DNA from: a virus
Taxonomy: Duplodnaviria; Heunggongvirae; Uroviricota; Caudoviricetes
IMG/VR virus record: IMGVR_UViG_2630968911_000003
Location: 1-11,761 of that record
Length of the DNA stretch: 11,761 bases
Direction: 5' to 3' (one strand)
The translations under genes were made by a program, and so were the position numbers. Shown in pieces: positions 1,995 to 2,829 of the stretch. The notes beneath the pieces were generated by a model, which saw only the letters and a program-made list of their open reading frames with translations, did not search any database and was not told the DNA's origin. Position 1 is the first letter of the stretch, and every line of letters starts with the position of its first letter.

Positions 1995-2023
1995 TTGTGA
2001 GCCCTTGCAATGTTCATTAATAT
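1995..2023 (+). promoter_or_regulatory. candidate sigma70 promoter for the GIY-YIG gene
   Basis: TTGTGA (1995-2000), a 17-bp spacer, then TAATAT (2018-2023), about 30 bp upstream of the ATG at 2056. Hand-picked weak match with no experimental support. Confidence 0.2.
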
Positions 2024-2055
2024 ACGTCTCACAAATAATTCATAGATATTGCAAA

Positions 2056-2829
2056 ATGGATATTACTGAGTTTCCTTCTGGAGTAATTGAACACCTTGGC
2101 TGGTATGTATACCGATTGATTGATCCGAGGGACGGAAGCACCTTCTATGTAGGGAAAGGCAAAGGTAACCGCGTATTTGCCCATATGCGCGGTGAAGTGG
2201 CAGCGACTGATGATGACGAGTTACTGAGCAACAAGCTAAAGCAAATTAGAGAAATAAGGTTAGCAGGACTTGAGGTTATCCATGTCATCCATCGACACGG
2301 AATGACTGATGAAAAGACGGCGTACGAAGTTGAAGCAGCACTTATTGATGCCTACCCTGGGTTAACGAATATCATGAATGGTGCTGGCAGCAATGAATTC
2401 GGCGCCGCGCATGTCAAAGAGTTGATAGCAACATATCAACCCGAAACCATAACATTTCATCATAAAGCATTAATGATTTCCGTTAACAGAAGTGCAAAGG
2501 ATTCAGAGCTTTATGATGCGGTTCGATTTAGCTGGCGCATTAATGTCTCTCGCGCCAGCCAAGCAGAAGTCATTCTTGCTACTGTAAGGGGGATCGTTCG
2601 AGGGGTTTTCATTGCTGATAAATGGCTCAAATCAACACGTGAAAATTTCCCTACGATGAAATACTGGGACGAGGATCCGGACTTTGAGGCAACACAAAGT
2701 TCTCGCTATGGTTTTGAAGGTCGAGAAGCCCCACCTGAAATAGCAAATCTTTATCTTGGAAAAAAAATACCAGATGAATTAAGAAAAAAAGGAGCTATGT
2801 CCCCGGTCCGTTACTCACCTAATTTTTGA
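2056..2829 (+). CDS. GIY-YIG nuclease-domain protein with uncharacterised C-terminal domain
   Basis: The N-terminal domain has the full GIY-YIG signature: 'GWYVYRLID' (GIY), '[10 protein letters not shown]' (YIG plus Arg), Glu in '[12 protein letters not shown]' and Asn in 'LTNIMNG'. The ORF track starts at a TTG (2005); the first ATG is 2056 (257 aa) and has a weak ribosome-binding site. The C-terminal ~130 aa carry no motif I can assign. Confidence 0.75.

Follow-up and report, generated by a model that had tools for sequence, protein, structure and literature searches.

The question posed by this locus is what a solitary gene for a GIY-YIG nuclease does at the end of a defective prophage. 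The stretch analysed here, hereafter the window, comprises 11,761 nucleotides of virus record IMGVR_UViG_2630968911_000003 and contains an open reading frame (ORF) at 2005..2829 on the plus strand, which encodes 274 amino acids from a TTG codon in the six-frame ORF list. A first-pass annotation, made from the letters of the DNA, had proposed a standalone nuclease of anti-phage defence, possibly dependent upon DNA modification. The ORF is as it was described and all of the peptide strings quoted from it lie inside it. Comparison of sequences leaves very little doubt that the product of 2056..2829 is CMoRE (alias PD-T4-3), a characterised single-protein restriction enzyme; the proposal was correct and its subject already known. 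In the window, a defective Escherichia coli prophage carries the gene as cargo at its end.

Identification of the gene product

A PADLOC-DB check of the locus yielded one full-length match, to PD-T4-3 (E=2.4e-140), with residues 1-256 of the protein aligned to model positions 1-255 of 256. A sequence search of the PDB matched the PD-T4-3 protein of E. coli O157:H7 (entries 9U75 and 9U8D) over 257 residues at E=3.7e-172, 253 of the 257 being identical, and the orthologue of strain APEC O1 (9U7U and 9U7Z) at E=1.1e-150. Entries 9U75 and 9U8D are deposited as 'GIY-YIG domain-containing protein', a restriction endonuclease of E. coli O157:H7 specific for 5-hydroxymethylcytosine (5hmC). The window protein had no match in NCBIfam. 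Four substitutions separate it from the O157:H7 enzyme (T51A, E55D, Q169K and N197H), none of them at known functional residues, and at two of these positions (E55 and N197) it has the APEC O1 state.

The family, length, architecture, GIYxY-YIG motif, acidic lid, interface residues and Y127 are all shared with CMoRE, as is the occurrence as one gene without a partner: no methyltransferase or other partner adjoins the gene, which forms a one-gene block at 1860-2890. Relative to the O157:H7 and APEC O1 genes, the setting is peculiar: the ykgA/pao locus, where a serU-type att remnant accompanies a defective prophage. Nothing in the sequence speaks against the identification. Relatives numbered 6562 in a database search at E<=1e-5, and the exact window sequence represents a cluster that has 1045 members. 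The terms 'orphan' and 'candidate' had implied novelty, of which the gene has none: the system was found in 2022 and is present in PADLOC, the structure was solved in 2026 and the biochemistry is likewise in hand.

The reading frame is preceded by a TAG stop codon at 1957 and offers three candidate in-frame starts, TTG 2005, ATG 2056 and TTG 2116. Of these, ATG 2056 is almost certainly the true one, which yields a coding sequence of 257 amino acids plus stop (2056..2829, plus strand), because the RefSeq coding sequence in E. coli G4/9, the crystallised N-terminus and the published residue numbering all agree. The G4/9 chromosome is 100% identical to window 1-3524, with 2056..2829 annotated as WP_000355484.1, 'LEM-3-like GIY-YIG domain-containing protein'. 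The crystallised orthologues begin with MDITEF, and the published residue numbers (Y17, Y19, Y31, R80, V92, L96 and Y127) fit the correct residues only with this start. The gene has a G+C content of 42-45%, with AT-rich DNA (33-35%) on one side and phage structural genes (53-59%) on the other, an intermediate value that fits a cargo gene.

Nuclease and sensor domains

The GIY-YIG nuclease domain, at the N-terminus, is encoded at 2056..2400 (plus strand). Its best Pfam match was PF22945, LEM-3_GIY-YIG (E=2.1e-14; 54.2 bits against a cut-off of 27), which places it in the GIY-YIG superfamily; the generic model PF01541 scored only 13.9 bits (cut-off 22.6). The motif is represented by W16-Y17-V18-Y19 and F30-Y31-V32-G33, together with the catalytic Arg and Glu. 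In an alignment of 82 relatives of 53-85% identity, Y17, Y19, Y31, R39, E93, N105 and Y127 were invariant, which confirms the catalytic set reported by the first-pass annotation. A catalytic Glu had been placed in the string 'AYEVEAAL'; this held, with the precise residue being, as judged from the alignment, E93 and not E91, since E93 is invariant and E91 is not. Invariance was also the basis for N105, because a residue-level alignment to UvrC was not obtained. A phmmer search of the PDB with the N-terminal domain alone (E<=10) returned only CMoRE itself and a chance match to YciN. The acidic run of the autoinhibitory lid loop that characterises CMoRE, D52-D53-D54-E55, is encoded at 2209..2220 (plus strand) and reads DDDE as in APEC O1, the O157:H7 protein having DDDD. 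The tetramer-interface residues R80, V92 and L96 are present.

The C-terminal half, residues 117-257 (2404..2826, plus strand), corresponds to the modification-sensing domain of CMoRE and includes Y127. The statement that this half carries no nameable domain was upheld, since neither Pfam nor NCBIfam gave a match in it, and Pfam on 32 C-terminal domains gave chance matches only. CMoRE's C-terminal domain binds 5hm-dCTP, with the 5-hydroxyl bonded to the main-chain O of Y127; neither a sequence nor a structural homologue of the sensor was found by Liu et al., who used the term distinct fold (PMC12923530). When the predicted C-terminal domain was searched with Foldseek, the ranks immediately after the CMoRE structures were taken by VcaM4I, YTH and ASCH, with weak scores (E ~0.1, TM ~0.4). 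These matches hint at a weak but coherent likeness in fold between the predicted sensor and PUA-like (YTH/EVE/ASCH) domains.

Restriction of modified DNA by CMoRE

PD-T4-3 was renamed CMoRE by Liu et al. (Nat Commun 2026; PMC12923530), whose work is the source of the 9U75, 9U8D, 9U7U and 9U7Z structures. First discovery is credited there to E. coli ECOR68, citing the functional selection of Vassallo et al. 2022, part of the text of which names only 'a GIY-YIG nuclease' among domains (PMC9519451). Supplied as a single gene with its native promoter, CMoRE of O157:H7 reduced the plating of T2, T4 and T6 by ~10^5-fold. Growth was normal at a multiplicity of infection (MOI) >1, indicating direct defence and not abortive infection, and T4 DNA was depleted from CMoRE cells with host DNA reads unchanged (PMC12923530). 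The purified enzyme degrades DNA containing 5hmC or glucosyl-5hmC (5ghmC) and spares C and 5-methylcytosine (5mC) DNA; likewise, T4(hmC) is subject to restriction, in contrast to T4(C). Cleavage requires two modified cytosines and occurs at CN11/N9G, leaving 2-nt 3' overhangs, and the enzyme is a tetramer (PMC12923530). A 15-residue acidic loop lies on top of the active site, and active-site mutants lose both cleavage and defence (PMC12923530). The tests by which the proposal might be judged, namely T-even phages with and without hmC or glucosyl-hmC and active-site mutants, have therefore been published for a protein 98.4% identical to that of the window (PMC12923530). In the clinical isolate NILS69, deletion of PD-T4-3 results in sensitivity to Tevenvirinae (10.1101/2024.12.20.629700).

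This literature bears out the two functional claims made for the gene: a standalone defence nuclease, as in PADLOC and in the demonstration of CMoRE as a single-component type IV enzyme, and dependence upon modification through a C-terminal reader, CMoRE's C-terminal domain being the sensor of 5hmC and 5ghmC (PMC12923530).

Proposed mechanism

Cleavage of 5hmC and 5ghmC DNA and protection against T-even phages are predicted for the window allele from its 98.4% identity to the O157:H7 protein. By that analogy, the protein would assemble as a tetramer (a dimer of dimers), as shown for the O157:H7 enzyme, and each C-terminal domain would bind 5hmC or glucosyl-5hmC in the incoming DNA of a T-even phage. 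One dimer would read two modified cytosines located ~21 bp apart on opposite strands, and the N-terminal GIY-YIG domains (Y17/Y19/Y31, R39, E93 and N105, with Mg2+ or Mn2+) would cut between them at the CN11/N9G positions, producing the 2-nt 3' overhangs. The acidic lid (D52-E55) over the active site would restrict access to tightly bound modified DNA, sparing host C and 5mC DNA. A methyltransferase partner would not be required, and early destruction of the phage DNA would allow the cell to survive, that is, direct defence.

Alternative explanations

Of the alternatives, the one that survives best would extend this mechanism without replacing it, and supposes a broader nuclease dependent upon hypermodification that also acts, for example, on the carbamoylmethyl-adenine of Mu or on arabinosyl-hmC. 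A homologue from Capnocytophaga (48% identity), recovered by selection against Mu, is modification-dependent and also cuts Mu DNA (PMC12366544), and the CMoRE sensor holds 5hmC at an edge and not in a closed pocket (PMC12923530). The E. coli enzymes, however, have strong activity for 5hmC and 5ghmC only; their activity on the arabinosylated phages Bas46 and Bas47 is very mild (PMC12923530), and the action on Mu is that of the Capnocytophaga homologue. The broader specificity is accordingly considered unlikely, though worth bearing in mind.

Three points qualify the proposed mechanism for the window gene. The activity of the allele itself, WP_000355484.1, is a prediction from its identity to the O157:H7 enzyme. 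A consensus scan for promoters found no sigma-70 site on the plus strand upstream of the gene. Driven by its own promoter, the orthologue of APEC O1 showed weak activity and protected poorly (PMC12923530), which makes the level of expression in the source strain uncertain. The last two points also favour a second alternative, in which the protein is of the same family but silent or weakly expressed here, a cryptic passenger of a decayed prophage providing no effective native defence. The prophage is indeed defective, with a truncated terminase fused to a baseplate J fragment, and phage NIC06_P2 escaped PD-T4-3 in the native host of the gene but not when the gene was carried on a plasmid (10.1101/2024.12.20.629700). 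Against such decay, the ORF is intact with all functional residues kept. The 196 bp upstream (1860..2055, plus strand) are conserved with the CMoRE gene in several contexts and presumably carry the promoter, the O157:H7 gene being functional from its native one. Strains of O157:H7 match the region 1700-2900 at 99.4% identity and their gene gave the protection described above, and the deletion in the native host NILS69 had a phenotype. A silent passenger is thus improbable.

The two remaining alternatives are both far less likely. CMoRE might be an abortive-infection toxin, a nuclease turned upon host DNA after infection so that the cell dies, as the toxicity of the 4A lid-loop mutant, which cuts ordinary DNA, could suggest; neither modified DNA nor 5hm-dCTP acts as an allosteric switch to the cutting of ordinary DNA by the wild type, and the normal growth and intact host reads of infected cultures are contrary to it, such that there is next to no case for this reading (PMC12923530). 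Nor is there any real prospect that the gene encodes another kind of GIY-YIG protein, be it a homing endonuclease, an Eco29kI-like type II enzyme whose methyltransferase lies at a distance or a repair nuclease of the UvrC/LEM-3 kind, in spite of the LEM-3-like name of the best Pfam match and a type II restriction-modification (RM) pair that adjoins the CMoRE gene in some strains. The protein matches over its full length an enzyme characterised biochemically as modification-dependent, and CMoRE functions alone when cloned (PMC12923530). As for the RM pair, it brings an endonuclease of its own and does not occur in the window.

Assignment to the I-TevI-like homing endonucleases was rejected: Pfam detected no NUMOD, zinc finger or helix-turn-helix (HTH) module, an intron or intein context is absent, and the gene is a cargo cassette at a prophage end. 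An Eco29kI-like type II enzyme was likewise rejected, with no methyltransferase in the 11.7-kb window and a family enzyme that spares unmodified DNA.

Relationship to other modification-dependent enzymes

CMoRE resembles PvuRts1I and AbaSI in being specific for 5hmC and 5ghmC and not C or 5mC, in combining an N-terminal nuclease with a C-terminal base reader, and in requiring a pair of modified cytosines, ~21-22 bp apart and located on opposite strands. The symmetric patterns of cleavage are essentially alike, with CN11-13/N9-10G for PvuRts1I (PMC4027163) and CN11/N9G for CMoRE (PMC12923530). Members of the PvuRts1I/AbaSI group possess a PD-(D/E)XK nuclease and an SRA reader; since both nuclease fold and reader differ, CMoRE is an analogue and not a member. 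PUA-superfamily fusions of reader and nuclease are among the closest known systems, including the EVE-HNH enzymes VcaM4I and TspA15I and the YTH-like or EVE-like N-terminal domains of McrB.

EcoKMcrA of prophage e14 is likewise a single-gene type IV enzyme acting on modified cytosine, and occupies the same slot, directly past pin on the att side of an e14-type tail module. The two have no sequence similarity. EcoKMcrA is an HNH nuclease that acts on 5mC and 5hmC and is encoded co-directionally with pinE, whereas CMoRE is a GIY-YIG enzyme, inactive on 5mC and active on glucosylated hmC, with its gene convergent with pin.

Prophage context

The window represents the end of a defective prophage in the ecp-pao-ykgA region of the chromosome. 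It begins with an IS3-type integrase fragment, a gene for an AraC-family regulator and ~800 bp of unannotated DNA, followed by CMoRE, the convergent pin gene and the invertible tail-fibre segment. Thereafter come a tail fibre gene, ymfQ, the truncated gene for the large terminase to which the baseplate J fragment is fused, a small terminase gene and an HNH gene, and finally iss/bor, Rz/Rz1, lysozyme and holin. Bordering the cargo slot, pin (annotated as pinE) is the final phage gene and encodes a serine invertase (2890..3444, alternatively to 3480, minus strand; Pfam Resolvase E=1.1e-51 and HTH_7).

In e14 of K-12 the order at the tail end is jayE-ymfQ-stfP-tfaP-tfaE-stfE-pinE-mcrA-att, with which the tail module of the window is syntenic gene for gene; homology ends at the pin stop codon. 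The location had been called an mcrA-equivalent slot, a description justified by this synteny of the tail-fibre/pin module and by the place of mcrA after pinE and next to att. The ORF of the truncated large terminase (6778-8466, minus strand) overlaps that of the C-terminal baseplate J fragment (6222-6809, minus strand). A deletion has removed the head and most of the tail genes, yielding a defective prophage in which a lambdoid lysis/terminase module is joined to an e14-type tail end. The iss/bor serum-resistance lipoprotein gene adjoins the lysis cassette, and Rz contains, on the minus strand, a nested ORF for an Rz1-type lipoprotein (9911-10252 and 10343-10525).

The 1.85-kb tail-fibre P segment (3506-5359) is flanked by 19-bp inverted repeats (AAACGTTGGTTTGGGAGAA / TTCTCCCAAACCAAGGTTT). 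Its orientation is opposite to that in the near-identical strain G4/9, to which it is 99.9% identical as the reverse complement; Pin-mediated inversion is therefore recent or ongoing. In e14, inversion of the homologous P segment is reported to create StfE2, which blocks T2 adsorption (2025 paper, PMC12529663). By analogy, two anti-T-even functions, CMoRE and the P segment, may stand side by side in the window.

DNA flanking the CMoRE gene

The neighbours of the gene had been given as convergent pin and AT-rich non-coding DNA with no methyltransferase or partner. The convergent pin and the lack of a partner were confirmed; the upstream DNA did prove to have features. In the ~800 bp at 1242-2055 there is no annotated gene and no methyltransferase, but a fragment of the serU tRNA gene and an IS630 remnant lie inside it. 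The former is a copy of tRNA-Ser (serU) reduced to its 3' 66 nt (1816..1881, minus strand), an att-type remnant that marks the prophage end beside the CMoRE gene. ARAGORN found no intact tRNA in the window, and Rfam gave two sub-threshold matches only, a tRNA-like one at 1819-1870, which is the serU fragment, and a weak CssrB-like one, which is the intergenic hairpin. This hairpin (2849..2889) lies between the convergent stop codons of CMoRE and pin, with a folding energy of -16.8 kcal/mol that is only marginally better than that of shuffled sequences (z=-1.83), and could conceivably act as a bidirectional terminator. A canonical terminator was not found in the promoter/terminator scan.

The serU fragment is part of a longer copy. 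The 344 bp at 1538-1881 are a 97% identical copy, on the minus strand, of the yodB-serU intergenic region and the serU 3' 66 nt, with the T-loop mutated. In structure it is an attR junction such as a prophage integrated at serU has, but its location is ecp-pao-ykgA; it seems that the prophage end, along with 278 bp of the host DNA that flanks serU, was carried to another place on the chromosome. The final 22 nt of the copy (1860-1881) accompany the CMoRE cassette in other genomes. An IS3-type integrase-core fragment, a mobile-element remnant, is present at 220-447, and a 55-bp match to an IS630-family transposase (1483-1537) abuts the serU-region copy. These insertion sequence remnants may be traces of the rearrangement by which the prophage end came to lie here.

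Distribution of the cassette and the pin-adjacent slot

The segment 1860-2890 is conserved as one block at 97-98% in four other contexts (loci L005, L007, L008 and L012). Among 5426 complete genomes of E. coli, the CMoRE gene occurred in 823 (~15%), and in 565 of these carriers it was joined directly to a pin of the window type. The recurrent placement next to an invertase or a prophage end that the first-pass annotation had proposed to look for is observed, including at a prophage end without pin: in E. coli S13 (L012) a type II RM pair precedes the CMoRE block, at the terminus of a lambda-like prophage (J, lom, stf, tfa) integrated at ssrA. Hence it is not the invertase itself to which the cassette is tied, but prophage ends beyond tail-fibre genes.

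In the sampled E. coli loci the cargo beyond pin comprised mcrA, CMoRE alone, a type II RM system with CMoRE, Avs2, Septu PtuA/PtuB with the PADLOC candidate PDC-S15, or a hypothetical protein without a PADLOC match. The invertase of P2-like phages is internal, with no adjoining cargo. The spot past the pin stop codon (2830-2890, with equivalents in L004, L005, L006, L007, L008, L013 and L014), next to att, behaves as a hotspot for defence cargo. It swaps cassettes of one to three genes and holds unannotated genes, such as that at L014:4298-4945, which could be new defence genes. Hypothetical proteins without a PADLOC match are encoded in or beside the slot at L014:4298-4945, L008:961-2427 and L008:2743-3162 (215, 488 and 139 amino acids, respectively), and are candidates for uncharacterised defence genes by virtue of position. 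No published description of a pin- or tail-fibre-adjacent defence hotspot was found in the literature searched, which is not proof of absence.

Two propositions arise from these observations, that the sensor may be a highly diverged PUA-like (EVE/YTH/ASCH) pseudobarrel and that the stretch from the pin stop to att in e14-type tail modules may be a formally undescribed defence hotspot. These readings are possible, with the balance of judgement tipped slightly towards doubt. If true, PUA-like ancestry of the sensor would place CMoRE in one evolutionary toolkit with EVE-HNH, SRA-nuclease and McrB-type type IV enzymes.

The window gene adds little biology of its own. Its value is that of a positive control, in that inference from raw sequence arrived at what the defence enzyme does, at its being a single gene and at its dependence upon modification, the mechanism having been published in 2026. 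The by-products that may be of value are two: the sensor possibly descends from PUA-like domains, and the cargo slot next to pin is a place in which to seek uncharacterised defence genes. CMoRE itself is a candidate tool for the mapping of 5hmC, and explains a capacity for resistance to T-even phages in ~15% of complete E. coli genomes, including O157:H7, which is of relevance to phage therapy and biocontrol.
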